From NCBI GenBank assembly GCA_965652415.1, contig CBFGVH010000005.1, forward strand, positions 1 to 60,294: 60,294 bases of DNA, given 5' to 3'. A program made the translations under genes and the position numbers. Positions 1,569 through 57,315 of this stretch are shown here, piece by piece (position 1 is the stretch's first letter; each line of letters starts with the position of its first letter). Origin of the DNA: an uncultured Gammaproteobacteria bacterium (GTDB lineage: Bacteria > Pseudomonadota > Gammaproteobacteria > Arenicellales > CAJQKF01). Below the pieces are notes generated by a model that was not told where the DNA came from, made no database searches, and saw only the letters and a list, made by a program, of their open reading frames with translations.

Positions 1569-1596
1569 CACGAAGGCGCCGCCCCGGCCGGCAGGC

Positions 1597-3360
1597 ATGC
1601 AGCGCCTTCACCACGATGCCGCGGTCGCGCAGACCGCGCAGACCATCTACAACGGCTTCGCCCACTACAACCGGCAGTTCCAGCGCATCACCGACCGCGC
1701 GCGCCGCCGCTTCGAGGCGCGCGACTGGAAGGGGCAGATCGAGGATATCGGTGCCCGCGTCGAGCTCTACGACAAGTGGGTGCTGAAGATCCACCGCCGG
1801 GTACGAAAGGAGCTGGGTCGGCGCTGCCGCGACCGCGTGCTGTGGCGCGAGGTGCGCAACTTCTACGGCTCGCGCCTGGAGAACGTTCCCGACGCGGGCT
1901 TCATGAAGACGTTCTTCAACTCGATCAGCCGGCGCGTGTTCGGCACCGTGGGCACGGACGGCGAACTCGAGTTCGTCCAGCCGCCGCCCGAGGAGGGCCT
2001 GGAGACGCTCGCCAAGCGGCGTTATCCGTGCTGGGAGAACATCGCCGACACCTGTCGCGCGGTGCTGCGCGACTTCCGCTTTCGCGTTCCCTTCCTCGAC
2101 TTCGAGGCCGACGTGGAACTGATGGCCGGCGAGGTGCGCGCGTTCGCGCGCGAGCGCGGTATCGACGTCGACAAGTTCCACCGCTTCGAGTTCATCGACT
2201 CGCACTTCTTCCAGGGCGCGCGCGCCTATCTCGTCGGCAGGATCCTGCACGGCGAGCGCCGCTACCCGATCGTGGTGGCGCTCGAGAACACGGGCGAGGG
2301 CATCCGCGTCGACGCGGTGCTGCTCGAGGAACGCGAGGTGAGCAACGTGTTCAGCTACACCCGCTCCTACTACTTCGCCGATCCCACCTCGGTGGTGGCC
2401 GCGGTGCAGTTCCTGCACACCATCCTGCCGCGCAAGCCCATCGACGAGTTGTACACGGTGCTAGGGCGGCTGCGCCAAGGCAAGACCGAGCGCTTTCGCG
2501 TGTTCTCGGACCACCTGAAGCGAACGCAAGACCCGTTCGTCCACGCCGAGGGCGACAAGGGCCTGGTGATGCTGGTGTTCACGCTCAAGTCGTTCAACCT
2601 GGTGTTCAAGGTCATTCGAGACCAGTTCGGCTATCCCAAGAACACGACCCGCGAGAAGGTCATGGGCAAGTACCGCCTGGTGTCGCGCCACGACCACGCC
2701 GGGCGCCTGATCGACACCCAGGAGTTTCGCAACCTGACCCTGCCCGCCAACCGCTTCGAAGCGGGCCTGCTCGACGAGCTGCTCACCGGCGCCACCGAGT
2801 CGATCCGCCGGGACGGCGACGACCTGGTGCTCAACCACGTCTACATCGAGCGGCGCGTGCGGCCGCTCAACCTTTACGTGCGCGAGGAACCCCTGGAGGC
2901 GGCGCGCGCCGCCATCATCGACTACGGCACCGCCATCCGCGATCTCGCCGAGACCAACATCTTCCCCGGCGACCTGCTGCTGAAGAACTTCGGTGTCACC
3001 GCGTCAGGACGCGTGGTGTTCTACGACTACGACGAAGTCGCGCTGGTCACCGAGTGCCGCTTCCGCGAACTGCCCGACACGGACGACGATTTCGGCCTCG
3101 CCGATCCGACGACGGCGATGTACATCGGCGCCAACGACATTTTCCCCGAGGAGTTCATCAAGTTCCTGGCCATGGACGCGCGCCTGCGCGAGGTGTTCCT
3201 CAAGGTCCATGGCGACCTGTTGACGCCGGCATGGTGGCGCGCCGTCAAGAATCGCCGCCTGGCGGGCGAGATCACGCAGGTGGTGCCCTATGCCAGGCGC
3301 GAAACGACGAACGCGCCGGCCAATGACGGGCTCCCGACATTGGCGGGCGTATCGGTCTGA
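1597..3360 (+). CDS. aceK: isocitrate dehydrogenase kinase/phosphatase
   Basis: 587-aa ORF starting 28 nt after icd. AceK-like N-terminus (TIYNGFAHYNRQFQRIT..RFEARDW) and kinase core (GRVVFYDYDEV). Confidence 0.92.
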   Translation: MQRLHHDAAVAQTAQTIYNGFAHYNRQFQRITDRARRRFEARDWKGQIEDIGARVELYDKWVLKIHRRVRKELGRRCRDRVLWREVRNFYGSRLENVPDAGFMKTFFNSISRRVFGTVGTDGELEFVQPPPEEGLETLAKRRYPCWENIADTCRAVLRDFRFRVPFLDFEADVELMAGEVRAFARERGIDVDKFHRFEFIDSHFFQGARAYLVGRILHGERRYPIVVALENTGEGIRVDAVLLEEREVSNVFSYTRSYYFADPTSVVAAVQFLHTILPRKPIDELYTVLGRLRQGKTERFRVFSDHLKRTQDPFVHAEGDKGLVMLVFTLKSFNLVFKVIRDQFGYPKNTTREKVMGKYRLVSRHDHAGRLIDTQEFRNLTLPANRFEAGLLDELLTGATESIRRDGDDLVLNHVYIERRVRPLNLYVREEPLEAARAAIIDYGTAIRDLAETNIFPGDLLLKNFGVTASGRVVFYDYDEVALVTECRFRELPDTDDDFGLADPTTAMYIGANDIFPEEFIKFLAMDARLREVFLKVHGDLLTPAWWRAVKNRRLAGEITQVVPYARRETTNAPANDGLPTLAGVSV

Positions 3361-14634: not shown

Positions 14635-14862
14635 GGGAGGAGCGGGCGATACCAGTCGAACGACTTCGAATCGATTATAGGCAAATTCGCGCGCCGCCGC
14701 GCCTGGGCGCGTTCAGCCGCCGCTTGGCCGCTCGTCCACGATGATCCGGCCGTCGGCATTGATGATGGTGCAGGCAAGGCCGACCAGATCGCCGCAGCCG
14801 ACAACGTGGCTGCTCATGGGCACTCCGGTGACAGCACCGCCGCGACGCGGCGGCGGACGCGG

Positions 14863-20295: not shown

Positions 20296-21465
<1,170 letters not shown>

Positions 21466-21973: not shown

Positions 21974-22381
21974 CTACTCGGCCGGTGCCGGCGCCGTATC
22001 GCCGCCGCGTGCGGGCCGGGTAACGACGGACAGGTTGTCGAGGCCGCGCTGGCGCAGCAGGTCGACGACGCCGAAGAAACTGCCGAACGGCGCCTCGCGA
22101 TCGACCCCGAGGACCACGGGCGTGGCGGCCGGAAGGGCGTCGAGTTCGGCGCCGAGTTCGTCCGCCGTAAGCACCGCGGCGCCCACGTACAGCGTGCCGT
22201 CGGCGGTGACGCTGATCTCGAACGAATCCTCAGGCGCCGCCCCGGCGGCGGCCGCCGACTCGGGGTAGTGCACCTCGATCACGCCGCGCGAGATGAAGGT
22301 CGCGGTGGTGAGCACGATGGCGAGCAGCACCAGCATGATGTCGATGAACGGAATCACGTTGATGGTGTCGATCCGCTTCAC
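21974..22381 (-). CDS. ExbD/TolR family biopolymer transport protein
   Basis: 135 aa from GTG at 22381 (VKRIDTINVIPFIDIMLVLLAIVL). GTGA overlap with the upstream gene. Confidence 0.8.
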   Translation of the reverse strand: MKRIDTINVIPFIDIMLVLLAIVLTTATFISRGVIEVHYPESAAAAGAAPEDSFEISVTADGTLYVGAAVLTADELGAELDALPAATPVVLGVDREAPFGSFFGVVDLLRQRGLDNLSVVTRPARGGDTAPAPAE

Positions 22382-22830
22382 GGCCGCGGTACGCTCTCGC
22401 CGAGGCCCCGCATCTTGCGCCAGCGCATCACCAGCACGTCGACCCGCCTGAGCAGCGCGTTGTAGAACCAAACCGCCGGTATGGCGACCACCAGCCCGAG
22501 GGCCGTCGCCTTCAGCGCCAGCGCCAGCCCCACCATGATCGCGGCTGCGTCGATGTTGCCGCCGGCGCGGCCGAGGTCGTGGAAGGTGAGCAGGATGCCG
22601 AGCACGGTGCCGAGCAGCCCGACGTAGGGCGCGTTGGCGCCGATGGTCGAGATCATGGTGAGATTGCGGGTGAGCATCACCGTCAACTCCTCCTGGTGCT
22701 CGAAGCGCTCCAGCGCGACGCGCCGGTAGTACAGGTAGCGCTCGACCACGCACCACACCATGACGAAGCTCATGGCGCCGAGGACGCCGATCACCGCGGC
22801 GTCGAGGTACTGGCGGAGGAGTTCGATCAT
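22378..22830 (-). CDS. MotA/TolQ/ExbB proton-channel family protein
   Basis: 150 aa from MIELLRQYLD. GANAPYVGLLGTVLGI motif. The rest of track ORF 22378..23556 is shadow. Confidence 0.8.
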   Translation of the reverse strand: MIELLRQYLDAAVIGVLGAMSFVMVWCVVERYLYYRRVALERFEHQEELTVMLTRNLTMISTIGANAPYVGLLGTVLGILLTFHDLGRAGGNIDAAAIMVGLALALKATALGLVVAIPAVWFYNALLRRVDVLVMRWRKMRGLGESVPRP

Positions 22831-22934
22831 CGACCTTGGGACCTTGCGGGACCGCGGCGAACACCGCCCCGGGTTCGGGAGTCGTAGGATACGGGATCGG
22901 GCGTGCGCGCGGAACCGGCTGCGGGCGATGCCAA

Positions 22935-23609
22935 TCAGGAACCGGTCGCGAGCCCCAGCCGGACCAGGGCCTCGCGGCCCGCGGCGACCACGTCCTGCGG
23001 CGCCCGGTAGCCGAGCGTCACCGCAACGAGCGCGCCGCCGTCGTCGCCGCCTTCTCGAAGCGCGAACACCGCGGGGAACCCGGCGACGCCGAGGTCGCGG
23101 GTCAGCGCGAGGTCCGCGGCGAAGTCCCGCCGTACCGCCTCGCCGTGGAACTCGTCGGAGAACCGGCGGCGATCGAGTCCGATCGAGCCGGCGATGTCGA
23201 TCAGCACCTCGTCGAGGGAGGGGTTGCGCGCCTCGCGGTAGTAGGCCCGCTGGATCGCCTCGATCATCTCCGGGCCGGCACTCTCGCGTACGCGCGCCGC
23301 TGCTATCACGGCGCGGCAGGCGGGCCAGGTGGACCGGCGCGGCTCGTTCAGCCGCCAGAAATCGTGGTTGAAGGACGCCCCGGTGTGCCGCTCGATTGCA
23401 CGCCAGGTATCGGCGATGGCGGCGCGCATGGGTTCGGGCATGGGCGCATCGCTGTCGGGCGCCAGCCCCCCCATGACGTGGCGCAGCGCCACCGATCGAC
23501 CGCAGTCGTCGACGAGCGCGCGCCAGCTCGGGGCGAAGGCATAGCACCACGAGCACATCGGATCGACGATGTATACGAGGACGAAGCGAGGCTCGGCGGG
23601 AGAATGCAC
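22935..23609 (-). CDS. DsbA-family thioredoxin-fold protein
   Basis: CSWCY active-site motif near the N-terminus. GTG start at 23609 chosen because pgm ends at 23614. Confidence 0.7.
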   Translation of the reverse strand: MHSPAEPRFVLVYIVDPMCSWCYAFAPSWRALVDDCGRSVALRHVMGGLAPDSDAPMPEPMRAAIADTWRAIERHTGASFNHDFWRLNEPRRSTWPACRAVIAAARVRESAGPEMIEAIQRAYYREARNPSLDEVLIDIAGSIGLDRRRFSDEFHGEAVRRDFAADLALTRDLGVAGFPAVFALREGGDDGGALVAVTLGYRAPQDVVAAGREALVRLGLATGS

Positions 23610-35547: not shown

Positions 35548-37962
<2,415 letters not shown>

Positions 37963-38108: not shown

Positions 38109-38124
38109 TGTTCCACGTGGAACA
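38109..38124. other. parS centromere-like site 1
   Basis: TGTTCCACGTGGAACA is a perfect 16-bp palindrome. 15/16 to TGTTNCACGTGAAACA, and both halves are accepted parS half-sites. Confidence 0.75.
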
Positions 38125-38316: not shown

Positions 38317-38332
38317 TGTTTCACGTGAAACA
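38317..38332. other. parS centromere-like site 2
   Basis: TGTTTCACGTGAAACA is an exact match to the parS consensus. The palindrome extends to 20 bp (GATGTTTCACGTGAAACATC, 38315-38334). Confidence 0.85.
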
Positions 38333-38365: not shown

Positions 38366-39466
38366 CTAGAGCCGCATCGGCATGACCAGGTAAAGCGTGT
38401 CGTCGTTCTCCGGTTCCTTGATGATGCAGCCGCTGTTGCTGTCCTGAAGGCGCAACTGAACCAGCGACGACGGCACCGCCTTCAGCGCGTCGAGCAGGTA
38501 ATTGACGTTGAACCCGATATCCAGTTCGGCACCGTCGTACTCCACGGAAATCTCGTCGCTCGCTTCCTCCTGGTCGGGATTGTGCGCGGTGACGGTGAGC
38601 AGGTTTGACGCGAGGTGGATGCGGATCCCCCGGAATTTCTCGTTGGTCAGGATCGCCGTGCGATTGAGCACGTCGGTCAATTCCGGGCGGTCGACGATCA
38701 GTGATACCGACAGGGCCTGCGCCATGACGGTCTCGTAGTCCGGGAAACGCCCATCGATCAGCTTGGTGGTCAGGGTAGAGGCGTCGGTGTGGAGGCGGAT
38801 GTGGTTCGGATTGAGCTCGAGCGTCAATTCACGATCCTCGTCCTCCAGGAAGCGCAACATCTCGAGTACCGCCTTGCGCGGCACGATCACTTGGCGAAAC
38901 GCATATTTTCCCGACTCGAGACTCGTCTCGCTCTTGGCGAGTCGGTGACCGTCCGTGGCTACCGCGCGAACCGTGTCATCGTGAATCTCGAGCAGGACAC
39001 CATTGAGAAAGTAGCGCACGTCCTGCTGGGCCATCGAGAACGCGGTCGACTCGAATAACCCCTTGAGCTCACGCTCGGATACCTTGAGGCGCTCCTCCCA
39101 GTCCTTCGTGTCGAGCCTGGGAAAATCCCCCGCGGGCAGGGTCTGGAGCTTGAAACGGCTGCGCCCGGACTGGATATGAGCTCCCTTTCCGTCGACCCTG
39201 AATTTTATCAGCGCGTCGTCCGGCAGCGCGCGGCAGATCTCGTAGAGCTTGCGCGCCATCACGGTGCAGCTGCCATCCTCGCCCTTGATGTTGCCGATCC
39301 GGAAGCTTACCTCGACTTCGAGATCGGTACCGGTGATGGTCAAGGAACCGTCCTCGACACTCAGGAACAGGTTGGAGAGGATCGGCAGCGTCTGGCGTTT
39401 CTCGACCACGCTGGTGGCCAGCCCAAGCGGTTTTATCAACCGGCTTTTTTCTATTTCCAGATACAT
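38366..39466 (-). CDS. dnaN: DNA polymerase III subunit beta (sliding clamp)
   Basis: 366 aa: MYLEIEKSRLIKPL...LYLVMPMRL. Three-domain clamp length. Confidence 0.97.
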   Translation of the reverse strand: MYLEIEKSRLIKPLGLATSVVEKRQTLPILSNLFLSVEDGSLTITGTDLEVEVSFRIGNIKGEDGSCTVMARKLYEICRALPDDALIKFRVDGKGAHIQSGRSRFKLQTLPAGDFPRLDTKDWEERLKVSERELKGLFESTAFSMAQQDVRYFLNGVLLEIHDDTVRAVATDGHRLAKSETSLESGKYAFRQVIVPRKAVLEMLRFLEDEDRELTLELNPNHIRLHTDASTLTTKLIDGRFPDYETVMAQALSVSLIVDRPELTDVLNRTAILTNEKFRGIRIHLASNLLTVTAHNPDQEEASDEISVEYDGAELDIGFNVNYLLDALKAVPSSLVQLRLQDSNSGCIIKEPENDDTLYLVMPMRL

Positions 39467-41547: not shown

Positions 41548-41919
41548 TTGTCGGGGCCGCAACGCGGCAGGTCCTCGTTTCCGCGCGAGCACCGCCTGCT
41601 CGACAGCGCCGGGTACCGGCGAGTGTTCACGGCCAGGCGGCGGGTCAGCGCCCGCCATGGCGCCTTCCACGTTCGGCCTAACGGACTGGATCATGCCCGG
41701 CTGGGCATAACCGTGTCGCGCAAGGTGTCGAAGAAGGCGGTCCAACGCAACCGGATCAAGCGCCAGGTGCGAGAGTATTTTCGCCACCACAGAGACAGCC
41801 TGAAGGGCATGGACGTGGTATTCACTGCCTATCCCGGATGCGCCGAGCTCGACAATCTCGCGCTTGCCCGGTTGCTCGAATCGCTGTGGCACAGAACCGA
41901 GGCCAAATGCGCTCACTGA
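41548..41919 (+). CDS. rnpA: ribonuclease P protein component
   Basis: 123 aa. FPREHRLLDSAGYRRVF plus basic RNR-type motif VSKKAVQRNRIKRQVRE. TTG start, so the start is uncertain. Confidence 0.87.
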   Translation: MSGPQRGRSSFPREHRLLDSAGYRRVFTARRRVSARHGAFHVRPNGLDHARLGITVSRKVSKKAVQRNRIKRQVREYFRHHRDSLKGMDVVFTAYPGCAELDNLALARLLESLWHRTEAKCAH

Positions 41920-42140
41920 TCATCCTCGTCCTGAAGGGCTACCGGTACCTCGCAAGTCCCCTGCTCGGGCCGAGCTGCCGCTTCTATCCGAGCTGCTCCG
42001 AGTACGCCATCGAGGCGGTCGAGCGTCACGGCTCGCTCAAGGGCGGCGCGATGGCGGTCGGTCGGGTGCTCAAGTGTCATCCGTGGCATGCCGGGGGTTT
42101 CGATCCGGTGCCCGAATCGTCCCCGAAACAGCCGTCATGA
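41907..42140 (+). CDS. yidD: membrane protein insertion efficiency factor YidD
   Basis: 77 aa. YRYLASPLLGPSCRFYPSCSEYA. Overlaps the rnpA 3' end and the yidC start (ATGA). Confidence 0.9.
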   Translation: MRSLIILVLKGYRYLASPLLGPSCRFYPSCSEYAIEAVERHGSLKGGAMAVGRVLKCHPWHAGGFDPVPESSPKQPS

Positions 42141-43846
42141 TGGAAACCCAACGACTGATCCTGTACGTGGCCCTCGGGCTCGTGCTGATGCTGCTGTGGC
42201 AGTCCTGGATACAGTACACCACGCCGACCCAGGCGCCGGGTCAGAACGAACAGGTCCAGGCCGGCGGGTCGGGCACGACGACTCCTGCGCGCGACGCCAC
42301 CGTGCCGGACGCACCCGACGCGCCGTCCGCTCCATCGGCCCCGGCGGCTCCGTCGACGCCCGGCACCCCCGATGCCAGCACCGAGGCGCCTGCCCAGGCC
42401 GAGGCTGGCGGCACCATCGTCGTCGAAACGGATCTTATCCGCGCCGAACTGAGCACGATCGGCGGCGATATTCGAAAGGTAGAGCTTCTCGACTATCCGG
42501 TTGACGTGGACCATCCCGAGGTCCCGCTGTCGCTGATGTCGTCCGAGCCGCCCAACATATTCATGACGGAAACGGGTCTGCTCGGCCGCGGCCACGAGTT
42601 CCCCAATCACCGGACCGAGTGGCGGATCGACGGCGAGAAGTTCACGCTCGATTCCGGTCGCGACAGTCTCGAGATCACCTTCTCCCACGAGGCGGGCGCC
42701 GTCACCTACCGCAAGGTCTACCGCTTTCGCCGCGACAGCTACCTCGTCGACGTCGAGTACAGGGTCGACAACGGCAGCGACACGCCCTGGAGCGGCTACC
42801 AGTACGCGCAGTTCGTTCGCACGGACTACGAAGAAGCCCGGACGATGGGGTTTCTCACCGCGCTGCCGAGCTTCCGAGGCGGCGCGATCTACACCCCCGA
42901 GGACCGTTTCCAGAAGATCGGCTTTTCCGATCTCGCCGATAGCGACCTCAAGCGCCAGACCGAGTCGGGCTGGGTGTCGATGCTTCAGCATTACTTCGTC
43001 GGCGCATGGCTGCCGGCCGAACCCGGTCCCTACGAATTCTACACCAGCGTCGCCGACCGCGCCGCGATGCTGCCGATGTACCGGATCGGCTACAAGACGC
43101 TGGCACCGGTGGAAGTCGCACCCGGCGCGTCCGGCGTCCTCGACAACCGCCTGTACATCGGCCCCAAGGAACAGGACCGCCTCGAGGAGGCCGCCGAGGG
43201 CCTGGTGCTGTCGGTCGACTACGGCTGGCTCACGGTCGTCGCCTCGCCATTGTTCTGGCTGTTGAGCTGGATTCACAAGGTGGTTGGCAACTGGGGCTGG
43301 GCGATCATCTTCCTCACCGTGCTGATCAAGCTGGTGTTCTTCCCGCTGTCGGCGGCGAGTTACAAGTCGATGGCGAAGATGAAGAACCTGCAGCCGCGCC
43401 TGAAGACCCTCAAGGACCGCTACGGTGACGACCGCCAGAAATTCCAGCAGGAGATGATGAAGATCTACAAGGAAGAGAAGATCAACCCGCTCGGCGGCTG
43501 CCTTCCCATCCTGGTCCAGATCCCGGTATTCATCGCCCTGTACTGGGTGTTGCTCGAGAGTGTCGAGTTGCGCCAGGCCGACTGGTTCTGGCTCAAGGAC
43601 CTGTCGGTGAAGGATCCGTTCTACATCCTGCCGATCCTCATGGGCCTGTCCATGCTGGTCCAGCAGCGCCTCAACCCGGCGCCCATGGACGACATCCAGA
43701 AGAAGGTGATGATGGCGCTGCCGTTCGTGTTCACCGTCTTCTTCCTGTTCTTCCCGTCCGGGCTGGTGTTGTACTGGGTGGTCAACAACGTGTTGTCCAT
43801 CGCCCAGCAGTGGTTCATCACCAACAAGCTGCAGGCGAAGAGCTGA
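42137..43846 (+). CDS. yidC: membrane protein insertase YidC
   Basis: 569 aa from MMETQRLILYVALGLVLMLLWQSW. Large periplasmic P1 domain. C-terminal core ...NPLGGCLPILVQIPVFIALY. Confidence 0.96.
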   Translation: MMETQRLILYVALGLVLMLLWQSWIQYTTPTQAPGQNEQVQAGGSGTTTPARDATVPDAPDAPSAPSAPAAPSTPGTPDASTEAPAQAEAGGTIVVETDLIRAELSTIGGDIRKVELLDYPVDVDHPEVPLSLMSSEPPNIFMTETGLLGRGHEFPNHRTEWRIDGEKFTLDSGRDSLEITFSHEAGAVTYRKVYRFRRDSYLVDVEYRVDNGSDTPWSGYQYAQFVRTDYEEARTMGFLTALPSFRGGAIYTPEDRFQKIGFSDLADSDLKRQTESGWVSMLQHYFVGAWLPAEPGPYEFYTSVADRAAMLPMYRIGYKTLAPVEVAPGASGVLDNRLYIGPKEQDRLEEAAEGLVLSVDYGWLTVVASPLFWLLSWIHKVVGNWGWAIIFLTVLIKLVFFPLSAASYKSMAKMKNLQPRLKTLKDRYGDDRQKFQQEMMKIYKEEKINPLGGCLPILVQIPVFIALYWVLLESVELRQADWFWLKDLSVKDPFYILPILMGLSMLVQQRLNPAPMDDIQKKVMMALPFVFTVFFLFFPSGLVLYWVVNNVLSIAQQWFITNKLQAKS

Positions 43847-45838: not shown

Positions 45839-45866
45839 AATATTGCCTGACCCGGAGAATCGCCCC

Positions 45867-46448
45867 ATGACCCGCCAGATCGTCCACGCCACGCTGCTCG
45901 CCGCGCTCGCGGCCTTGCCTGCTGCCGCCGAACAGCGCAGCCGCGGCGCGCATGTCCACGGCATCGCCACCGTCAACGTTGCCGTCGAGGGCGGCACCTT
46001 CGTGGTCATGCTGGAGACACCGGCGGCCAACGTCACGGGCTTCGAGCACGCCCCCGGCAGTGACGCCGAGCGCGAGCTGGTGGCCCGCGCCGCATCGCGG
46101 CTCGGTTCGGGCGAGGCCTTCACGCCCGACCCCGATGCCGGCTGCGAGCTGGAAACGGCCGAGGTCGAGGGCGCCCTGCTCGGCGACGTTGCCGAATACG
46201 AACACGATGACAACGATCACGCTCACGGCGACGACCATGTCCACGACGACGGCCGCGGTGCCCAGGCCCACGCCGACTTCGAGGCGGTACTGACCTGGAA
46301 CTGTACCCGGCCGGAAGCGCTCGCCACGGTGCGGATCAACCTGTTCGAGATGTTCGACGGATTCGACACCATCACCGTGAACGTGGCGGCGCCCGCCGGG
46401 CAGATCCGCATCGAGGCGACGGCCGCCTCGCCCACGGTTTCGTTCTGA
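45867..46448 (+). CDS. ZrgA-like (DUF2796) periplasmic His/Asp-rich metal-binding protein
   Basis: Signal peptide MTRQIVHATLLAALAALPAAA|E. His-rich loop EYEHDDNDHAHGDDHVHDD. GGAGAA RBS. The family call is by recollection. Confidence 0.75.
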   Translation: MTRQIVHATLLAALAALPAAAEQRSRGAHVHGIATVNVAVEGGTFVVMLETPAANVTGFEHAPGSDAERELVARAASRLGSGEAFTPDPDAGCELETAEVEGALLGDVAEYEHDDNDHAHGDDHVHDDGRGAQAHADFEAVLTWNCTRPEALATVRINLFEMFDGFDTITVNVAAPAGQIRIEATAASPTVSF

Positions 46449-46474
46449 TTGCCGCAATGTCAGCGCCCGCCCTC

Positions 46475-46636
46475 GTGTCCTGTCCCGCAAGCAACGTCAA
46501 ATATCGTGCGGCTGCAGCGGCCCCGGGAGGCGTTACGCCTCCTTGCCATATGGCCCGGTATGACTCGTCGACGTGCCTTGCCGGGAACCGCTACAGCCAC
46601 ACGATTTTCATGCGACAAACTTGCGGGACAGGACAC
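46475..46636. repeat. 162-bp imperfect palindrome with 17-bp perfect terminal inverted repeats (MITE-like element or structured intercistronic RNA)
   Basis: GTGTCCTGTCCCGCAAG (46475-46491) is the exact reverse complement of 46620-46636. A second tier of about 22 bp pairs 18/22. Internal hairpins include GGAGGCG-tta-CGCCTCC plus palindromes GCCATATGGC and CGTCGACG. Confidence 0.75.
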
Positions 46637-46683
46637 TAGCCGGCGCGGGTACACTTGCCGCCATTCATCACCGGGACCGGGAC

Positions 46684-47391
46684 ATGGCCGCCGCCCCCAT
46701 CATCGACATCGCAGATCTCGTGTTCGGCTGGAAACGTAACGAGGTGACTCTCGACATTCCCGCGTTGTCCGTCGAGTCGGGCAGCCGCGTGTTCGTGCAG
46801 GGGCCGAGCGGATCGGGCAAGAGCACATTGCTCAACCTGCTCGGCGGCATCATCGTTCCCCGCGCCGGCCGCATACGGGTTCTCGACGAGGACCTCGGCG
46901 CCCTGCCGGCGGCGGCGCGGGACCGGTTCCGCGCCGACCACGTCGGCTTCATCTTCCAGCAGTTCAACCTGGTTCCGTATCTCGACGTGGTGGACAACGT
47001 CCTGCTGCCGCTGCGTTTCTCCGCCGCCCGCCGCGCACGGCTCGACGGCGATGCGCGCGACGTGGCGCGGCGCCTGCTGGCCGACCTCGGCCTTTCCACC
47101 GCCGACGTCGATACGCGCCGCACCCACGAACTCAGCGTCGGCCAGCAGCAGCGGGTGGCGGCGGCGCGGGCGCTCTTGGGTGCCCCCGAGCTGGTCATCG
47201 CCGACGAGCCGACATCGTCGCTCGACGTGAAGCACCGCGAAGCCTTCCTCGCCCTCCTGGAAGCCGAGTGCGCGCGCTCCGGTGCCACCCTTGTGTTCGT
47301 CAGCCACGACCCGGCGCTGGCGCCGATGTTCGACCGGGTGGTCGACCTGGTGCAGATCAACCGCGCCCCGGGCGGTGGGCAGGTGCCATGA
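46684..47391 (+). CDS. ABC transporter ATP-binding protein (ZrgB/PA4064-like)
   Basis: 235 aa from MAAAPIIDIADL. GPSGSGKSTLLN, LSVGQQQRVAAARAL, IADEPTSSLD. Confidence 0.9.
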   Translation: MAAAPIIDIADLVFGWKRNEVTLDIPALSVESGSRVFVQGPSGSGKSTLLNLLGGIIVPRAGRIRVLDEDLGALPAAARDRFRADHVGFIFQQFNLVPYLDVVDNVLLPLRFSAARRARLDGDARDVARRLLADLGLSTADVDTRRTHELSVGQQQRVAAARALLGAPELVIADEPTSSLDVKHREAFLALLEAECARSGATLVFVSHDPALAPMFDRVVDLVQINRAPGGGQVP

Positions 47392-48647
47392 CACTGCTGT
47401 CCCTGGCGGCGAAGAGCCTCGCCAACCGCCGCTTCACCTCGATACTGACCGTGTCGACCATCGCCCTGTCCGTGCTGCTGCTGCTCGGCGTCGAGCGGAT
47501 GCGCACCGAGGCCCGCGAGGCCTTCACCAGCACGGTGTCCGGTACCGACCTGATCGTCGGTGCGCGCACCGGCGCGGTGCAGCTGCTCCTGTACTCGGTG
47601 TTCCACATCGGCAGCGCCACCAACAACATCACCTGGCAGAGCTACCGGGACATCGCCGCCCTGCCGGGCGTGGCGTGGACGGTGCCCATCTCCCTCGGCG
47701 ACTCCCACCGCGGCCACCGGGTCATGGGCACCGAGGCGGCCTTTTTCGAGCATTACCGCTATGCCCGCGATCGCCGGGTCGCCTTCGCCGCCGGCTCGAC
47801 CTTCGACGACCTCTACGATGCGGTGCTCGGCGCCGAGGTCGCCGCGCGGCTCGGCTACCGCATCGGCGAGGCGCTGGTCATCGCCCACGGCGCCGGCAGC
47901 GCCAGCGTGCTCGATCACGGGGACAAGCCGTTTCGCGTCGCCGGCATTCTCGAGCGCACCGGCACGCCGGTCGACCGCACGGTGATCGTGTCGCTGGCCG
48001 GCATCGAGGCCATCCACGCCGACTGGGCTGGAGGCGTGCCGGTACCCGGCCGACGCCTCGACGCCGACGCCGTGCGTGAACTCGACCTCACGCCCGACGC
48101 GATCACCGCGGTGCTGGTCGGCCTGTCGTCGCGGGTTCACACCTTCCGCGTGCAGCGCCTGGTCAACGAGTATCCCGGGGAGCCGCTGCTGGCCATCCTG
48201 CCCGGCGTCACCTTGGCCGAGTTGTGGAACGTCATGGGCGTCGTCGAAGGGGCGCTCATGGCGATCTCGGCGCTGGTGGTGCTGGTGGGCCTGGGCGGCA
48301 TGGTCACGGCGCTGGTCACGGGCTTGAACGAACGGCGCCGCGAGATCGCCGTGCTGCGCTCGGTGGGGGCGCGGCCGTGGCAGGTGCTGGGGCTGCTGGT
48401 TGTCGAAGCGATGTTCCTCGCCGCCGCCGGCATCGTCATCGGCCTGCTGTTACTCTACGCGGTGATCGGTACCGCCGGCGGCGCGCTGGAATCGCACCTC
48501 GGGTTCTCGCCGGCGTGGCGCATGCCCGGCCTCGTCGAGTGGCTGATGCTGGGCGGCGTGCTGGCGGCCGCGCTCCTCGCCGGACTGGTGCCGGGCATGC
48601 GCGCCTATCGCTACTCGTTGTCGGACGGACTGGCACTTAGACTATGA
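47388..48647 (+). CDS. ABC transporter permease, FtsX/MacB-type (ZrgC/PA4065-like)
   Basis: 419 aa from MTLLSLAAKSLANRRFTS. ATGA overlap with the ATPase gene. N-terminal TM, periplasmic domain, then three C-terminal TMs. Confidence 0.88.
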   Translation: MTLLSLAAKSLANRRFTSILTVSTIALSVLLLLGVERMRTEAREAFTSTVSGTDLIVGARTGAVQLLLYSVFHIGSATNNITWQSYRDIAALPGVAWTVPISLGDSHRGHRVMGTEAAFFEHYRYARDRRVAFAAGSTFDDLYDAVLGAEVAARLGYRIGEALVIAHGAGSASVLDHGDKPFRVAGILERTGTPVDRTVIVSLAGIEAIHADWAGGVPVPGRRLDADAVRELDLTPDAITAVLVGLSSRVHTFRVQRLVNEYPGEPLLAILPGVTLAELWNVMGVVEGALMAISALVVLVGLGGMVTALVTGLNERRREIAVLRSVGARPWQVLGLLVVEAMFLAAAGIVIGLLLLYAVIGTAGGALESHLGFSPAWRMPGLVEWLMLGGVLAAALLAGLVPGMRAYRYSLSDGLALRL

Positions 48648-49207
48648 ACATGAAACCGCTGTTGTCCCTGGCCTGCGCCATGCTGCTCGTCACGGGATGC
48701 AGCGAGGCGCCGCAGGAGTCGGTCGGCGCCGCGCCGCGCCAGCTCGAATGGGACGACCTGATGCCGGCCGACTTCGACCCGACCGGCGCGCTGCCCGATG
48801 TCGACATCGGGGCCCTGAGCGACGACGACCCGCGCACCCAGCGCTTCTACGAACTGGTGCGCGAGGCCTGGAACAACGCCCCGGTGGTCGCCGAGCTGGA
48901 CGGTACCCTGGTGCGGCTGCCGGGCTTCGTGGTGCCGCTCGAGTACGACGAGAAGCAGGTATCAGAGTTCCTGCTGGTGCCGTATTTCGGCGCCTGCATC
49001 CACACCCCGCCGCCGCCCGCCAACCAGATCGTTCACGTCACCACCGGCGGGTTCGGGCCGAGTCCGGAACAGTTGTGGGACCCGGTCTGGGTGACCGGCA
49101 CCCTGCGCACCGAGACCGTTGCCTCGGAACTCGCCCATGCCGGTTACCGCATGGACGCGACAGTAATCGAGCCGTACGAGGAACCGGCGGAAAGCGCGGC
49201 CAACTGA
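48644..49207 (+). CDS. DUF3299-like lipoprotein (PA4066-like)
   Basis: Lipobox LLVTGC|S. ATGA overlap with the permease. ...LLVPYFGACIHTPPPPANQIV... motif. Confidence 0.7.
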   Translation: MNMKPLLSLACAMLLVTGCSEAPQESVGAAPRQLEWDDLMPADFDPTGALPDVDIGALSDDDPRTQRFYELVREAWNNAPVVAELDGTLVRLPGFVVPLEYDEKQVSEFLLVPYFGACIHTPPPPANQIVHVTTGGFGPSPEQLWDPVWVTGTLRTETVASELAHAGYRMDATVIEPYEEPAESAAN

Positions 49208-49265: not shown

Positions 49266-50549
49266 ATGATTCCCGCGGTCGATGATTCGCTCCGCGTTGC
49301 CGATCCATCCTCCCCGGGACCTGACGCTTTGACTGCCCCCGCGACCAATCCATCGGGCAAGGCGGTGTTCGTGTTTTCCTCGCTCGGACACTTCTTCGTT
49401 CACCTGTGCATCGCCTTCTACTTCGTGATCGTGCTGTCGCTGGAGCGCAGCTGGAACGTGCCGTATCACGAACTGGTCAGCCTGTGGACGCTCGGCTCCC
49501 TCATGGTCGGGCTCGCCGCGCTGCCTGCCGGCATGATCGCCGACCGCTTCGGCGCGCCCGGCATGATGGCGGCATTCTTCATCGGCATGGGCGCCTGCTC
49601 GATCGGCGCCGGCCTGTCCGACGGCACTTTCGCCCTGCTGCTGTGGCTGACCGGCATCGGCGTGTTCGCCGCCATCTATCACCCCGTCGGCATTCCCTGG
49701 CTGGTGCGCAACACCGACGGCGCGCGCGGCAAGGCGCTGGCGGTGAACGGCATCTTCGGCTCCTTCGGCGGCGCCGCCGCCGGCATCGTCAGCGGCCTTC
49801 TCATCGATGTCTTCGACTGGCGCGCTGCGTTCATCGTCCCCGGCGTCGTGATCGCTGCGACCGGGGTGGTGCTGGCGGCCATGATGCGTGCCGGCTCGCC
49901 TCTCGACCGTCCGGCCCCGACGGCATCGGTGAAGGGCGAGGGCGGCGCGCCGGTGCGCGTGTTCCTCCTGCTGATGGTCACCATGTTCGTCGCCGGACTG
50001 GTGTTCAACGGCACCCAGGTCGCGCTTCCGAAGCTGTTCGAGTTGCGTCACGGCGGACTGGCCGGGGAGGGCATCGCCGGCATCGGCATCCTTGTCGCCA
50101 TCGTCTATTCCCTGGCCGGCGTCATGCAGCTGGTCGGCGGCCACCTCGCCGACCGCTACCCGCTCAAGGCCGTGTACACCGCGGCCATCGCCATCCAGGT
50201 GCCGCTGCTGCTGGCGGCATCGTGGGTCGGCGGGGCCGTGCTGGTAGTGGTGGCCACGCTGATGGTGATGGCCAACGTCAGCGCGCTGCCGGCGGAGAAC
50301 ATGATGCTGGCGCGCTATGCGCCGGGACGCCGGCACGGGCTCGCCTTCGGCGCCAAGTTCGTGCTCGCCTTCGGCGCCGCGCCGCTCGCCGTGCAGTTGG
50401 TGTCGCTGATCCAGGATGCGACGGGCGAGCTCGGCGCGCTGTTGCAATTGTTCGCCGTCTGCGTGGTGCTGGCGCTGGCCGCTGCCCTCGCCCTGCCGGC
50501 GCTGCCGCGCACTGCGCCGGTCCGGACCGTACCGGCCGGGGCCGGGTAA
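49266..50549 (+). CDS. MFS transporter
   Basis: 427 aa with 12 hydrophobic segments. MFS loop motif GMIADRFG. Confidence 0.85.
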   Translation: MIPAVDDSLRVADPSSPGPDALTAPATNPSGKAVFVFSSLGHFFVHLCIAFYFVIVLSLERSWNVPYHELVSLWTLGSLMVGLAALPAGMIADRFGAPGMMAAFFIGMGACSIGAGLSDGTFALLLWLTGIGVFAAIYHPVGIPWLVRNTDGARGKALAVNGIFGSFGGAAAGIVSGLLIDVFDWRAAFIVPGVVIAATGVVLAAMMRAGSPLDRPAPTASVKGEGGAPVRVFLLLMVTMFVAGLVFNGTQVALPKLFELRHGGLAGEGIAGIGILVAIVYSLAGVMQLVGGHLADRYPLKAVYTAAIAIQVPLLLAASWVGGAVLVVVATLMVMANVSALPAENMMLARYAPGRRHGLAFGAKFVLAFGAAPLAVQLVSLIQDATGELGALLQLFAVCVVLALAAALALPALPRTAPVRTVPAGAG

Positions 50550-50559
50550 GACCGGCTTC

Positions 50560-52113
50560 GTGTTCTCCCGCACCGGCGCGGCGGAGTTCGCGGTCCCCTC
50601 CGAGTGGCCGCGGGCGCGGGTCAGGCGCCTCGTCGGGCGGCGGCTCGACCTCAAGGCCGAGGGCGCCCGGCAGCGGATGATCTTCTACGATACGTTCGAC
50701 TGGCGCTTGCACCGTGCCGGCTACACCCTCGAACTGGCGCCCGGCAGGCCTTCGATGGCGCGGCTGCGACGGCTCGACGACGGCCGCGCCGAGGCCGAGC
50801 AGGAACTCGACGGGGAACCGCCCCGCTTTGTTCACGACTGGCCGCGCGGCCCGGTCGGGGCGGCTGCGGCGAGGGCCTGCGGGATACGCGCGCTGATGCC
50901 GCAGGTCGCCTTGGCGGGCGGCGCCGAGGAATTGGCCGTCGTCGGCGCAGAGGGCAAGACCGTCTGCCGGTTGTCCCTCGAGCGCTGGCGGGTCGAGAAG
51001 AGCCGCGGTGCCGAGGCGTGGCAGCGGATCCGCGTCATGCCCCTGCGCGGCTTCGACGAAGAGGCCGCGCAGGTCTTCCGGGTGCTGGCCGATACCGGGC
51101 TGCCGCTGGCGCTGACACCGACACTCGATACCGGGCTGGCGGCCATCGGCCGCCGGCCGCGGGATTATTCATCGAAGTTTCGGCTCGAACTCGATGCCGG
51201 CGCTGGCGCCGCGGCCGCGGTGCGCGCCATCCTCGCCCGCCTGCTCGACGACCTCGAGCGCAACGAGCAGGGCACTCGGTGCGACATCGACCCGGAGTTC
51301 CTGCACGACTACCGGGTCGCAGTGCGGCGCACGCGGTCGGCGCTGTCGGTCCTCGGCCGCGCGCTCGACCCGGAGGCGCCGCGGCCGTTCGTCGAATCGT
51401 TCCGCGAGCTCGGTCGCGTCACCGGCGGCAAGCGCAACCTCGACGTCCACCTGCTGGACTTCGACGCCCATCTCGCCCTGCTCGATGCGCCCCGCCGCGA
51501 GGCGCTCGCCGAACTGCGCCGGGTCTTCGAAGTCCGCCGAGACGCCGCCGGCGCCGAGCTCGCCGCGTACCTGGCGAGCCCGGGCTACCGCGACTTCAAG
51601 CGCCGCTACCGGCGCTTCGTCGATGCCGGCACCGACGCCGATCCCGGCCGCCAGTGGCCGCTCGTCGACTTCGCCGGCCGGGTCATCTGGAAGACGTACC
51701 GCAAGATCCTCGAACATGGGCGTGCCATCGACGCCTCGTCGCCCGACGAGGCCCTGCACGACCTTCGCAAGCGCGGCAAGAAGCTGCGCTACCTCATGGA
51801 GTTCTTCCAGGACCTCTATCCGCGCAAGGGCATGAAGCCGGCGCACGCCGAGCTCAAGGCGCTGCAGGACCATCTCGGGCTGTTCCAGGACCAGTGCGTG
51901 CAGATCGAGACCCTCGAGGCGCTCGGCACCAGCGACATCGATGCGCTGGCGGCCGCCGCGGTGAACGAGCTGGTCGACGGGCTGACGAGCGAGCGCCGCC
52001 GAACCCGCGCGGCCTTCGCCGATCACTTTGCGCGCTTCGACGCACCTGCCCGGCGGGCGCGCTTTGCCGCCCTGTTCAAGCCGTCGAAGTGCGCGGACAA
52101 GGAACGCCGGTAG
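50560..52113 (+). CDS. CHAD-domain protein with N-terminal CYTH-position domain
   Basis: Two canonical CHAD helical motifs: LHDYRVAVRRTRSAL and LHDLRKRGKKLRYLMEFF. Start is GTG at 50560 (alternative ATG at 50677). The track ORF 5' end overlaps the MFS gene and is rejected. No ExExK CYTH signature seen. Confidence 0.8.
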   Translation: MFSRTGAAEFAVPSEWPRARVRRLVGRRLDLKAEGARQRMIFYDTFDWRLHRAGYTLELAPGRPSMARLRRLDDGRAEAEQELDGEPPRFVHDWPRGPVGAAAARACGIRALMPQVALAGGAEELAVVGAEGKTVCRLSLERWRVEKSRGAEAWQRIRVMPLRGFDEEAAQVFRVLADTGLPLALTPTLDTGLAAIGRRPRDYSSKFRLELDAGAGAAAAVRAILARLLDDLERNEQGTRCDIDPEFLHDYRVAVRRTRSALSVLGRALDPEAPRPFVESFRELGRVTGGKRNLDVHLLDFDAHLALLDAPRREALAELRRVFEVRRDAAGAELAAYLASPGYRDFKRRYRRFVDAGTDADPGRQWPLVDFAGRVIWKTYRKILEHGRAIDASSPDEALHDLRKRGKKLRYLMEFFQDLYPRKGMKPAHAELKALQDHLGLFQDQCVQIETLEALGTSDIDALAAAAVNELVDGLTSERRRTRAAFADHFARFDAPARRARFAALFKPSKCADKERR

Positions 52114-52847
52114 TGCGGGTCGTCGCCCTCTACAGCATCAAGGGCGGCGTCGGCAAGACCGCCGGTGCGGTCAACCTCGCCTGGGAGGCGATGCGCCACG
52201 GTTATCGCACCCTGCTGTGGGACATCGATCCCCAGGGCGCGGCATCGTGGTACCTGCGCATCCGCCCGGAGCTGCCCGGGGGCGTCGACACGGTCCTCAA
52301 GAAACGCGTCACGCGCGGCATCAAGGCGACCGACTACCCGGGGCTCGACCTGCTGCCGGCCGACTTCACCCACCGAAATCTCGACCTCCTCCTCGATCGG
52401 CGCAGGAAGCGGCGCAAGTCGCTGGCGCGGGTCGTGGATCGCTTCGCCGCCGACTTCGACATGGTTTTCGTCGACTGCCCGCCGGGCATCTCGCTGGTGT
52501 CGGAGAACGTGTTCCGAAGTGCCGACGTGCTGCTCAACCCTGTCATCCCTTCGACGCTGTCGGTACGCACGCTGGAACAGCTCGCCGATTTTCTGCGCGA
52601 GTCGGGACCGGCAGGCGTGCGCTTGCTGAACTATTTCTCCATGGCCGACCGCCGGCGGCGCATGCACCGCGACGTGATGGAAACCCTTGCTCGCGAGCGC
52701 GCCGACGTCCTCGACACCGCGATCCCCGACTCGAGCGTGGTCGAGCGCATGGGCGTCGAACGACGCCCGGTGGGAGCCTTCGCGCCGCGCAGCACCGCCG
52801 CGGCCGCGTACCGGCGCCTGTTCGAGGAGCTGGAGGCGGTGCTCTAG
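52113..52847 (+). CDS. orphan ParA/MinD-family (deviant Walker A) ATPase
   Basis: 244 aa from GTG at 52113 (VRVVALYSIKGGVGKTAGAVNLA). DIDPQG, VFVDCPPG. AAGGAA RBS 9 nt upstream. The start overlaps the CHAD TAG stop (TAGTG). Confidence 0.86.
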   Translation: MRVVALYSIKGGVGKTAGAVNLAWEAMRHGYRTLLWDIDPQGAASWYLRIRPELPGGVDTVLKKRVTRGIKATDYPGLDLLPADFTHRNLDLLLDRRRKRRKSLARVVDRFAADFDMVFVDCPPGISLVSENVFRSADVLLNPVIPSTLSVRTLEQLADFLRESGPAGVRLLNYFSMADRRRRMHRDVMETLARERADVLDTAIPDSSVVERMGVERRPVGAFAPRSTAAAAYRRLFEELEAVL

Positions 52848-56114: not shown

Positions 56115-56242
56115 GTGCCGCTCGCGGTTTTGCATGGCGGGCCGCGTTTAAGGTTTAATGGCGGCGAGCATCATCCGGGTCGTGCGCACGAGCGTCACCC
56201 AACCGAAGATCCTATCTGTCCAACCTTGTTTTGGAGACCGAC

Positions 56243-56536
56243 ATGGCGAGCGAAGGCTATCACGAGCCCATCGAGGAACTGAGCGACGCCACCCGCGACA
56301 TGCATCGCGCCATCGTCTCGCTCATGGAGGAACTCGAGGCGGTGGACTGGTACAACCAGCGCGTCGACGCCTGCAAGGATGCCGAGCTGAAGGCCATCCT
56401 CGCGCACAACCGCGACGAGGAAAAGGAGCACGCCGCAATGGTGCTGGAATGGATCCGGCGCAAGGACCCGACGCTCGACAAGGAACTCAAGGACTACCTG
56501 TTCACCGAAGGCGAGATCGGTCACCACCACGAATGA
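56243..56536 (+). CDS. encapsulated-ferritin (EncFtn)-like ferroxidase, without recognisable targeting peptide
   Basis: 97 aa. HRAIVSLMEELEAVDWYNQRVDAC..LKAILAHNRDEEKEHAAMVLEWIRR is near-identical in pattern to the Rhodospirillum rubrum EncFtn core, with Glu/Glu/His ferroxidase residues retained. GGAG RBS. Ends ...FTEGEIGHHHE. Confidence 0.82.
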   Translation: MASEGYHEPIEELSDATRDMHRAIVSLMEELEAVDWYNQRVDACKDAELKAILAHNRDEEKEHAAMVLEWIRRKDPTLDKELKDYLFTEGEIGHHHE

Positions 56537-56595
56537 GTGCGACGAGCGTCCGTCGCGCTGACCGTCCGGCCGTTCGCGGCGGCTGACTGGCGTTC

Positions 56596-57315
56596 ATGGG
56601 CGCGCGCGGCGGGTTCGGATTTGCCAGCGGCCACCTGCTGGCCGGCAAGTACGAGGTCCTCGACTACCTCGGCGGCGGCTGGCAGGGCGAGGTATACAAG
56701 ATCCGCGAGCGCGGCACGCGCGTCGAGCGCGCCGCCAAGATCTTCTATCCCAAGCGCAACGTCCGCAACCGCACCGCGTCGACCTATGCCAAGAAGCTGC
56801 ACAAGCTGCGCAGCTGCCCGATCCTGATCCAGTACCACACCTTCGAGACCATCGAGCACGAGGGGCGTCCGGTCACGCTGTTCATATCGGAGTACGTCGA
56901 GGGCGAGCTGCTGCAGCACTTCGTCACTCGCTACCGCGGCGAGCGCCTGCCGTTGTTCATGGCCATCCACCTGCTGCACGCCCTGGCGGTGGGCGTGGAG
57001 AGCATTCACCGCATGGGCGAGTATCACGGCGACCTGCACTCGGAGAACGTCATCGTGCAGCGGCTTGGCCTGACATTCAATCTCAAGCTGCTCGACCTGT
57101 TCCACTGGGGGCCGGCCAATCGCGAGAACCGCCACCACGACATCTGCAGCATGATCCGCATCTTCTACGACGCGCTCGGCGGCCAGAAGACCTACGCCCG
57201 CCAGCCGCAGAAGGTGCGCGACATCTGCTGCGGCCTGAAGCAGTCCCTGATCCGCAAGAAGTTTCGCACCGCGAGCGAGCTGCGCCTGTACATCGAGGCG
57301 CGCGACTGGAGCTGA
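56596..57315 (+). CDS. small atypical protein-kinase-fold protein (RIO/Bud32-like)
   Basis: 239 aa. Gly-loop LGGGWQGEVYK, VAIK-type Lys in RAAKIF, catalytic loop YHGDLHSENVIV, metal-binding LLDLF in place of DFG. Confidence 0.72.
   Translation: MGARGGFGFASGHLLAGKYEVLDYLGGGWQGEVYKIRERGTRVERAAKIFYPKRNVRNRTASTYAKKLHKLRSCPILIQYHTFETIEHEGRPVTLFISEYVEGELLQHFVTRYRGERLPLFMAIHLLHALAVGVESIHRMGEYHGDLHSENVIVQRLGLTFNLKLLDLFHWGPANRENRHHDICSMIRIFYDALGGQKTYARQPQKVRDICCGLKQSLIRKKFRTASELRLYIEARDWS

Follow-up and report, generated by a model that had tools for sequence, protein, structure and literature searches.

How bacteria keep their polyphosphate (polyP) granules in order is the question raised by two adjacent genes in the stretch of DNA analysed here, a window of 60,294 nucleotides (nt) from an uncultured Gammaproteobacteria bacterium (GenBank assembly GCA_965652415.1, contig CBFGVH010000005.1, positions 1 to 60,294 of the forward strand). 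The first gene encodes a protein with a CHAD domain and the second a ParA-type ATPase. Several bacteria place their polyP granules at regular intervals over the nucleoid and pass them on to their progeny in an orderly manner. A preliminary description of the locus, made from its sequence, proposed that the CHAD protein is a cargo adaptor by means of which the ATPase spaces these granules. From the analysis described below we give a probability of roughly 55% to the reading that the pair forms a two-component ParA-type system that organises or positions polyP granules. That the two genes are functionally linked is in itself very likely, and both homology and genomic context give good support to a link of the pair with polyP.

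The pairing was evaluated from both sides, since the preliminary description had asked how frequently the two genes occur together and whether they have co-evolved. Starting from the ATPase, a profile of 16 members of its subfamily was compared with one genome per GTDB species, and the best 80 of at least 582 confirmed stretches were taken; the upstream partner was called by phmmer with the CHAD protein of the window against six-frame open reading frames (ORFs), which left 77 evaluable loci. A full-length homologue of the CHAD protein is located directly upstream in 59 of these 77 loci (ParA identity of 45–56%), and in 41 of the 59 paired loci the genes overlap, by 4 nt in 36 and by 1 nt in five. 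From the side of the CHAD protein, metagenome contigs were compared with an alignment of 19 members; among the best 80 loci, with identities of 30–39%, 75 were evaluable and 62 of them carry directly downstream a ParA of the same subfamily (196–278 bits against the ParA of the window). The distance matrices of 109 pairs correlate with r = 0.86, as compared with a permutation maximum of 0.09, a value to which shared phylogeny contributes; mean pairwise identity is 57% for the ParA and 38% for the adaptor.

Within the best 80 loci, the carriers include Methylococcales, Sedimenticolaceae, Thiodiazotropha and Tenderia in the Gammaproteobacteria, Thalassospiraceae and Rhodospirillales in the Alphaproteobacteria, Nitrosomonas marina and Nitrotoga in the Betaproteobacteria, Desulfobulbaceae (Desulfobacterota), Trichloromonas (Desulfuromonadota) and many Actinomycetota; the cultured alphaproteobacterium Emcibacter nanhaiensis is also a carrier.

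The evidence that points to polyP comes in the first place from the CHAD protein. Pfam detects CHAD (PF05235) at residues 223–452 with 203.7 bits (cut-off 25.6, E = 5e-60), and the AlphaFold2 model of the complete protein has a predicted local distance difference test (pLDDT) of 89.6 and a predicted template modelling score (pTM) of 0.82. The CHAD region matches the Chlorobium structures 6qv7 and 6qva, with or without polyP, with a Foldseek E-value of 1.6e-17, a template modelling score of 0.90 and 36% identity; likewise, phmmer against 3e0s/6qv7 gave E = 1e-47. The preliminary description had mentioned two textbook CHAD motifs. Two His/Arg motifs are indeed present, but Pfam sees a single CHAD domain and not two; LHDYRVAVRRTR and LHDLRKRGKKLRY belong to the two four-helix bundles of this one domain, and the residues of the first motif are kept in at least 98%, and those of the second in at least 90%, of 109 family members.

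PolyP binding and granule localisation have been shown for relatives with CHAD domains (PMC6537752, and Tumlirsch & Jendrossek 2017 as cited there), and CHAD domains were found to bind polyP and not nucleic acids (PMC6537752). In CtCHAD, the protein Q8KE09 of Chlorobium tepidum, the residues H253, R256, R260 and R296 contact polyP, and mutating them abolishes binding (PMC6537752). These residues correspond to H249, R252, R256 and R292 of the window protein and are at least 99% conserved in the 109 members; from this correspondence we infer that the CHAD domain of the 517-residue protein binds polyP. CtCHAD (structures 6qv7, 6qva and 3e0s) has been studied in its CHAD domain only. It has 522 residues as compared with 517, a long CHAD domain at residues 208–522 and 36–42% identity to members of the family with identical polyP-contact residues, and it probably belongs to the same family.

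The other half of the protein contrasts with the canonical CYTH-CHAD architecture. The N-terminal domain was modelled as an eight-stranded tunnel fold (pLDDT of about 90), and Foldseek matched it to ThTPase, AtTTM3, SaTTM and YgiF with a probability of 1.0. Pfam and NCBIfam gave no match in this domain, including PF01928; a precomputed Pfam list of 120 relatives shows CHAD alone for all 120 and CYTH for none. The ExExK catalytic motif, whose absence from the window protein had been pointed out previously, is absent from all 19 aligned family members. Judged from its predicted fold and its residues, the domain is a degenerate CYTH/TTM barrel, and would be catalytically degenerate as well. It has an invariant DxFDWR motif and invariant R110, K133, R163 and G164, and five basic and two acidic residues are conserved in it. 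A search with this domain against 1.84 billion cluster representatives retrieved 1241 proteins (E ≤ 1e-3); it is diagnostic of the two-domain architecture because nearly all these matches are proteins of 510–530 residues in which the domain is N-terminal. A few members (P0368, P0417 and P0424) have 683–740 residues with the domain starting at residue ~185–238, and show either an extra N-terminal region or a miscalled start.

The second protein is a minimal Soj-like ParA and belongs to the ParA/MinD superfamily of deviant-Walker-A ATPases, in agreement with the preliminary description: KGGVGKT, DID and VFVDCPPG are all present. Among 139 members of the subfamily KGGVGKT is invariant, and D37, D39 and D121 are each conserved in at least 95%; by homology, the protein is expected to dimerise in an ATP-dependent manner. 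Pfam assigned it to AAA_31 with 93.9 bits (cut-off 27, E = 1e-26), CbiA with 42.8 (25.4) and ParA with 32.9 (27.1), and the best matches of its profile in the PDB were the ParA 8ray (2e-32) and TtSoj (3e-24), McdA (1e-10) and MinD being much weaker. In the alignment with Soj, neither an N-terminal extension or helix-turn-helix nor a C-terminal amphipathic membrane helix is present, and the protein ends at the last core helix. The models of specialised relatives were not reached: the equivalog ParA_partition (NF041546) gave 93.9 bits for a cut-off of 180, MinD (TIGR01968) 40 for 213 and BcsQ (TIGR03371) 79.8 for 157.85, and RepA, SopA and PrgP were far below their cut-offs. Likewise, there are no bcs genes next to the pair in the window, and no cellulose-synthesis family among the annotated neighbours of related loci. 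A basic loop, R-[IV]-K-P-K-[VI]-K-G-G (residues 49–57), is specific to the subfamily. The ParA of the window and its closest relatives show a weakened version of it (RIRPELPGG instead of RIKPKVKGG; positions 52,257–52,283), which may be a lineage-specific change in whatever the loop binds.

At the locus itself, the preliminary description had the CHAD ORF coupled to the ParA ORF through a TAGTG overlap preceded by an AAGGAA ribosome-binding site, and both the coordinates and the features were borne out (Table 1). It had also taken the MFS transporter gene as probably part of the same operon. The gap of 10 nt stands, and this gene is probably co-transcribed with the pair at this locus; however, it is a lineage-specific companion outside the core module, given that a homologous MFS gene precedes the pair only in the close relatives L005 and L007 and in one other lineage (L001). 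The MFS protein has weak, sub-threshold similarity to organophosphate/inorganic phosphate transporter families. Downstream of the pair there is a gene for a MaoC-like dehydratase in convergent orientation. A scan of the region from 48.4 to 53.8 kb for promoters and terminators returned nothing useful, and no Rfam family was above its threshold in the window.

The genes around the pair in other organisms also relate it to polyP. All-against-all clustering of the flanking ORFs revealed no universal third gene; the most frequent additional family, present in 15 of 83 loci, is lineage-specific (e.g., an alpha/beta hydrolase or a radical SAM protein in Actinomycetota), and besides CHAD and ParA no family, ParB included, recurs in more than 15 of the 83. 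PPK1 is present in 12 loci, being directly upstream of the adaptor gene in Trichloromonas and in at least six metagenome loci, PPX in five (directly upstream in Nitrotoga), a SixA-like histidine phosphatase in 15, and a canonical stand-alone CYTH gene in four loci plus Emcibacter; by our estimate, chance would give about 0.5 occurrences of a single-copy gene in ~160 loci of ~10 genes. PepN flanks the pair in 10 loci of the Sedimenticolaceae/Thiodiazotropha, as it does in Acidithiobacillus. The separate CYTH gene (PF01928) adjoins the pair in unrelated lineages (L001, 6764–7231; L169, 7319–7828; L034; L109; L157), as if it supplied the activity lost from the degenerate domain of the adaptor.

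Part of this gene order has been drawn before. A conserved cluster folD-ppk-parA-(CYTH-CHAD) was depicted in Acidithiobacillus, where it was read as a cAMP signalling (PMC6416229) or copper-resistance unit (PMC10892726), and its ParA was left as a partition protein. It resembles the loci described here in having parA beside a CYTH-CHAD gene and ppk1, and shares pepN on its flank; the difference is that in Acidithiobacillus the active-site residues of CYTH were reported as conserved, and the protein was taken for an adenylate cyclase or a copper-related factor. The impression conveyed by the preliminary description, that the pairing had not been described, holds in so far as neither paper proposes positioning, and fails for the adjacency itself; what appears to be new is the breadth of the pairing, its reciprocity and its interpretation as a positioning system. 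Our searches of full texts yielded no publication in which a ParA/MinD ATPase is proposed for polyP granules. A 2025 review on organelle positioning gives AlgP as the only factor for these granules and marks ATP dependence as unknown (PMC13052382), a 2026 mBio paper considers the polyP granule mechanism unclear and the function of the CHAD proteins unknown (PMC13556221), and neither a 2023 survey of multiple ParA/MinD ATPases nor a 2024 review of the family mentions CHAD or polyP.

The system that most resembles the proposed one is McdA/McdB, which positions the carboxysome, a non-DNA and protein-coated inclusion. In both cases the gene of a small ParA-type ATPase is next to that of an established or, here, proposed cargo adaptor in a two-gene module without a centromere, and for McdAB-like systems the pairing of ATPase and adaptor genes is conserved across taxa, as it is here (59/77 and 62/75). 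The components differ: McdB is small and largely disordered, whereas the adaptor described here is unrelated to it and consists of folded CYTH-like and CHAD domains; the ATPase resembles Soj more than McdA in its sequence (3e-24 versus 1e-10) and keeps the classical signature lysine; and the cargo would be a granule of an inorganic polymer, a counterpart of the carboxysome that is only proposed. With chromosomal ParA/Soj the ATPase shares the fold, the catalytic motifs, about 30–35% identity and the equivalent of BsSoj R189; in contrast, its overlapping partner is a CHAD protein and not ParB, the equivalents of K227 and K230 are lost, and it has its own basic loop and a DRRK cluster. In the E. 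coli polyphosphatase YgiF (5a60) CHAD likewise comes after a TTM barrel (Foldseek E = 1e-8); its tunnel has an active ExExK and its CHAD domain is short and without a central pore, whereas in this family the barrel is degenerate and the CHAD domain long. To our knowledge YgiF has no ParA partner. The only proteins linked until now to an even spacing of polyP or polyhydroxybutyrate granules, AlgP in Pseudomonas aeruginosa and PhaM, PhaF and PhaH for polyhydroxybutyrate, tether the granules to the nucleoid (PMC9239181, PMC13052382). Those proteins are passive, histone-H1-like binders of DNA and granule that involve no ATPase and are unrelated in sequence to the pair.

According to the mechanism that we propose, the 517-residue protein would bind the surface of the granule by its CHAD domain, and either its degenerate CYTH-like domain or its short basic C-terminal tail would connect it to the ATPase. 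The tails are short (median of 8 residues) and somewhat rich in lysine and arginine (20%), and their sequence is not conserved. The ATPase would assemble into ATP-dependent sandwich dimers on a matrix in the cell, for which the nucleoid is the likeliest candidate, and adaptor-stimulated hydrolysis would release it from there; the resulting ParA-type ratchet would space the granules, limit their fusion and share them between the daughter cells, and the overlapping stop and start codons would keep both proteins co-expressed. The chances seem evenly balanced that the pair represents the first system of the ParA type, driven by ATP, for the positioning and inheritance of an inorganic storage polymer, in which a dead tunnel domain fused to CHAD would act as the ParA-coupling module in more than 1000 protein clusters from Proteobacteria to Actinomycetota.

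Several observations weigh against this reading, whose weak spot is the matrix. The DNA-binding patch of HpSoj (K199, K227, K230 and K247; PMC6393308) was mapped through the TtSoj alignment and scored in the 139 members. The K199 equivalent, R181, which is also that of BsSoj R189, is an arginine in 138 of the 139 and lies in the conserved DRRK cluster (residues 179–182), and the K247 equivalent (position 226) is K or R in 89 (64%); on the other hand, position 206 (K227) has Y or A, and position 209 (K230) has D or E in 91 of the 139 members (65%). With two of the four basic residues kept, nucleoid binding is uncertain, though plausible. The proposal that the CHAD protein is the adaptor of a granule-spacing ParA is in part supported: the pairing, the polyP genes in its context and the contact residues favour it, and the half-kept DNA patch speaks against it. 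Also adverse is the absence, in the family alignments, of a conserved N- or C-terminal peptide of the adaptor that could stimulate ParA. The order of the genes is the reverse of that in parAB and mcdAB, in which the ATPase comes first, and deletion of phosins in other organisms reportedly did not strongly disturb granule formation (PMC13556221). The contact between ParA and adaptor, the identity of the matrix and any effect on the position of the granules are hypothetical.

Gene fusions between CHAD and ParA were considered as evidence of interaction and were rejected, as they are mostly frameshift artefacts. The read-through from CHAD to ParA in L035 and L048 comes in both cases from metagenome-assembled genomes obtained with long reads, and in a relative with 97% identity the two genes are separate; when the read-through ORF was searched against a database, nearly all relatives proved to be separate proteins of ~519 residues. 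Three of the apparent fusions (P0316, P0301 and P0259) have frameshifted junk between the domains, and P0247, the only one with both domains intact, is doubtful; its AlphaFold2 model (unpaired alignment; pLDDT of 66, pTM of 0.42) was uninformative on contact.

The last of the adverse points is that the genes do not always stay together. ParA without a CHAD neighbour was found in only three clades, i.e., a Methylobacter/Crenothrix group, two Desulfuromonadales and one acidobacterium; conversely, of 13 CHAD genes that lack a ParA neighbour, 11 group in a single clade whose GC content resembles that of Methylococcales, and this clade may be the same lineage as the split Methylobacter/Crenothrix ParA. 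In this split CHAD clade (L168, L089, L092, L112 and L127) the CHAD gene is divergent from a SixA-like phosphatase gene and pstS-pstC-pstA. Among the split ParA genes, one has PsiE directly upstream and PPK1 3.6 kb away. In L168 (5001–7891) an insertion sequence with a DDE transposase occupies exactly the position expected for ParA.

These separations are what could be invoked for the idea that the two genes adjoin as neighbourhood noise, with no functional meaning, which the preliminary description had considered in the form of lineage-specific noise; this idea is effectively refuted because of the reciprocal adjacency (59/77 and 62/75), and the pairing, together with the overlap of stop and start codons, extends over at least four phyla, whereas the rest of the neighbourhood changes. 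A different question is whether the ATPase is the chromosome-partition ParA of the organism, working with a distant ParB and with parS sites at the origin, the CHAD neighbour being incidental or a modulator. The preliminary description had reported no parS nearby, which is correct locally but not for the window: two sites, one perfect and one with a single mismatch, are found in the 410-bp dnaN-gyrB intergenic region (0.01 expected in shuffled sequence), 12–14 kb from the pair, which itself is ~9 kb from dnaA; therefore, the organism uses ParABS. Moreover, tblastn revealed no second ParA-like sequence in the 60-kb origin window, in which ParB was not searched for, and the closest solved structures are chromosomal ParA/Soj. 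Still, a partition role is highly improbable for an ATPase whose subfamily is coupled to CHAD at the frequencies given above, with no other family, ParB included, in more than 15 of 83 loci, and which reaches 93.9 bits for the cut-off of 180 of ParA_partition and has lost half of the Soj DNA patch, next to a domain that does not bind nucleic acids (PMC6537752). The flanking genes vary by lineage, and dnaA, gyrB and yidC were not found in the flanks of other loci, a weak test given that these flanks cover 4–6 kb and in the window the corresponding distances are 6.7–9 kb.

Two explanations remain. The CHAD protein could be a polyP-tuned enzyme, either a class IV adenylate cyclase or a tri/polyphosphatase, in line with a proposal made for the CYTH-CHAD protein of Acidithiobacillus, with the ATPase as a regulatory or chaperone-like partner in polyP/cAMP metabolism; its architecture equals that of YgiF, the ppk-parA-CYTH/CHAD cluster of Acidithiobacillus was interpreted as cAMP signalling (PMC6416229), and five basic and two acidic residues of the N-terminal domain are conserved. 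This seems very doubtful in view of the ExExK motif being found in none of the 19 aligned members and of the lack of a Pfam CYTH match in the window protein and in the 120 listed relatives; in addition, the separate canonical CYTH gene beside the pair in several loci suggests that the fused domain has given up this activity. We know of no ParA/MinD ATPase that acts as a metabolic regulator of such enzymes. Alternatively, the pair could act on polyP granules with the ATPase off the nucleoid, as a nucleotide switch on the granule or on another scaffold. Such a switch would control the nucleation, number, fusion or polar anchoring of the granules, in the manner of MipZ, PomZ or FlhG rather than McdA. 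The loss of half of the DNA patch, with an acidic residue at the K230 equivalent, agrees with this, and the conserved basic loop and DRRK cluster could bind another polyanion or a partner. Nonetheless, the arginine equivalent to BsSoj R189 is kept in 138 of 139 members, the ParA of the window has its basic loop weakened, and DNA is the usual matrix of small ParA/Soj-type ATPases that lack a membrane helix, so that we regard both the off-nucleoid location and this MipZ-like mode of control as possible but unlikely. Positioning of polyP granules by a ParA-type system remains the reading that we prefer.

Table 1. Features of the pair and of the rest of the window (positions are those of the window).
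Feature	Position	Strand	Remarks
CHAD-protein gene	50560..52113	+	517 aa (amino acids), GTG start; ORF and start agree with homologues
ParA-type ATPase gene	52113..52847	+	244 aa; ParA/Soj-like, deviant Walker A
MFS transporter gene	49266..50549	+	PF07690; ends 10 nt before the GTG at 50560
Ribosome-binding site AAGGAA	52099-52104	+	8 nt upstream of the ParA GTG
TAGTG stop/start overlap	52111-52115	+	TAG 52111-52113, GTG 52113-52115, one base in common
N-terminal beta-barrel, CYTH/TTM-like	50584..51159	+	aa ~9-200; Foldseek
CHAD domain, two four-helix bundles	51202..52077	+	aa ~215-506; Foldseek and phmmer
CHAD motif 1, LHDYRVAVRRTR	51301..51336	+	aa 248-259; H249, R252, R256, R257, R259
CHAD motif 2, LHDLRKRGKKLRY	51754..51792	+	aa 399-411; H400, R403, K404, K407, R410; read from sequence
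Deviant Walker A, KGGVGKT	52140..52160	+	aa 10-16; signature K10, P-loop K15
Walker A'/switch I, D37-I-D39	52221..52229	+	aa 37-39; from sequence
Walker B, MVFVD (D121)	52461..52475	+	within VFVDCPPG; from sequence
atp operon (atpB, atpA, atpG)	atpB 20584-21447	-	origin region, also glmS
gyrB	35548-37956		
parS, one mismatch, TGTTCCACGTGGAACA	38109-38124		dnaN-gyrB intergenic region (410 bp)
parS, perfect, TGTTTCACGTGAAACA	38317-38332		dnaN-gyrB intergenic region (410 bp)
dnaN	38366-39466		
dnaA	39660-41192		
yidC	41804-43843		
ZrgA-like His/Asp-rich periplasmic protein, then ABC ATPase, FtsX/MacB-type permease, DUF3299	45843-49207		
EncFtn-like (encapsulated-ferritin-type) 101-aa protein ending HHHE, then 60 nt, 239-aa Ser/Thr-kinase-like protein	56231-57315		
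Isocitrate dehydrogenase, then AceK kinase/phosphatase	1555-3357		ORFs overlapping; ordinary pairing

With regard to the rest of the window, positions 14,800–43,850 correspond to the chromosomal origin region. In it, the usual gidA-gidB-parA-parB block beside atpI is replaced by ExbB/ExbD-like ORFs (about 21,974–23,556), and there is no recF between dnaN and gyrB. The ZrgA-like cluster, directly upstream of the MFS gene, has a layout like that of the Zur-regulated zinc importer ZrgABCDE and is syntenic in L005 and L007. The arrangement of the EncFtn-like and kinase-like genes is the same in the relative L005, and an encapsulin shell gene is not in view.

For polyP granules the only factor known so far is AlgP of Pseudomonas, a passive DNA binder, and the reviews of 2025 and 2026, according to which neither an ATP-driven nor a ParA/MinD system is known for these granules, ask about energy-consuming machinery and name no candidate (PMC13052382, PMC13556221). 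The gene pair described here is a concrete, widespread and genetically simple two-gene candidate for granule positioning, and it is present in cultured organisms, i.e., Emcibacter nanhaiensis, Methylomonas lenta, Sedimenticola selenatireducens and Nitrosomonas marina, probably also in Acidithiobacillus and possibly in Chlorobaculum tepidum. If the proposed role is correct, the ParA/MinD family would gain a new cargo and a new adaptor architecture, the long-unexplained CHAD proteins known as phosins would have a function, and the degenerate CYTH domain would be explained; it would also offer a handle for engineering polyP storage, for instance in phosphorus-removal organisms.

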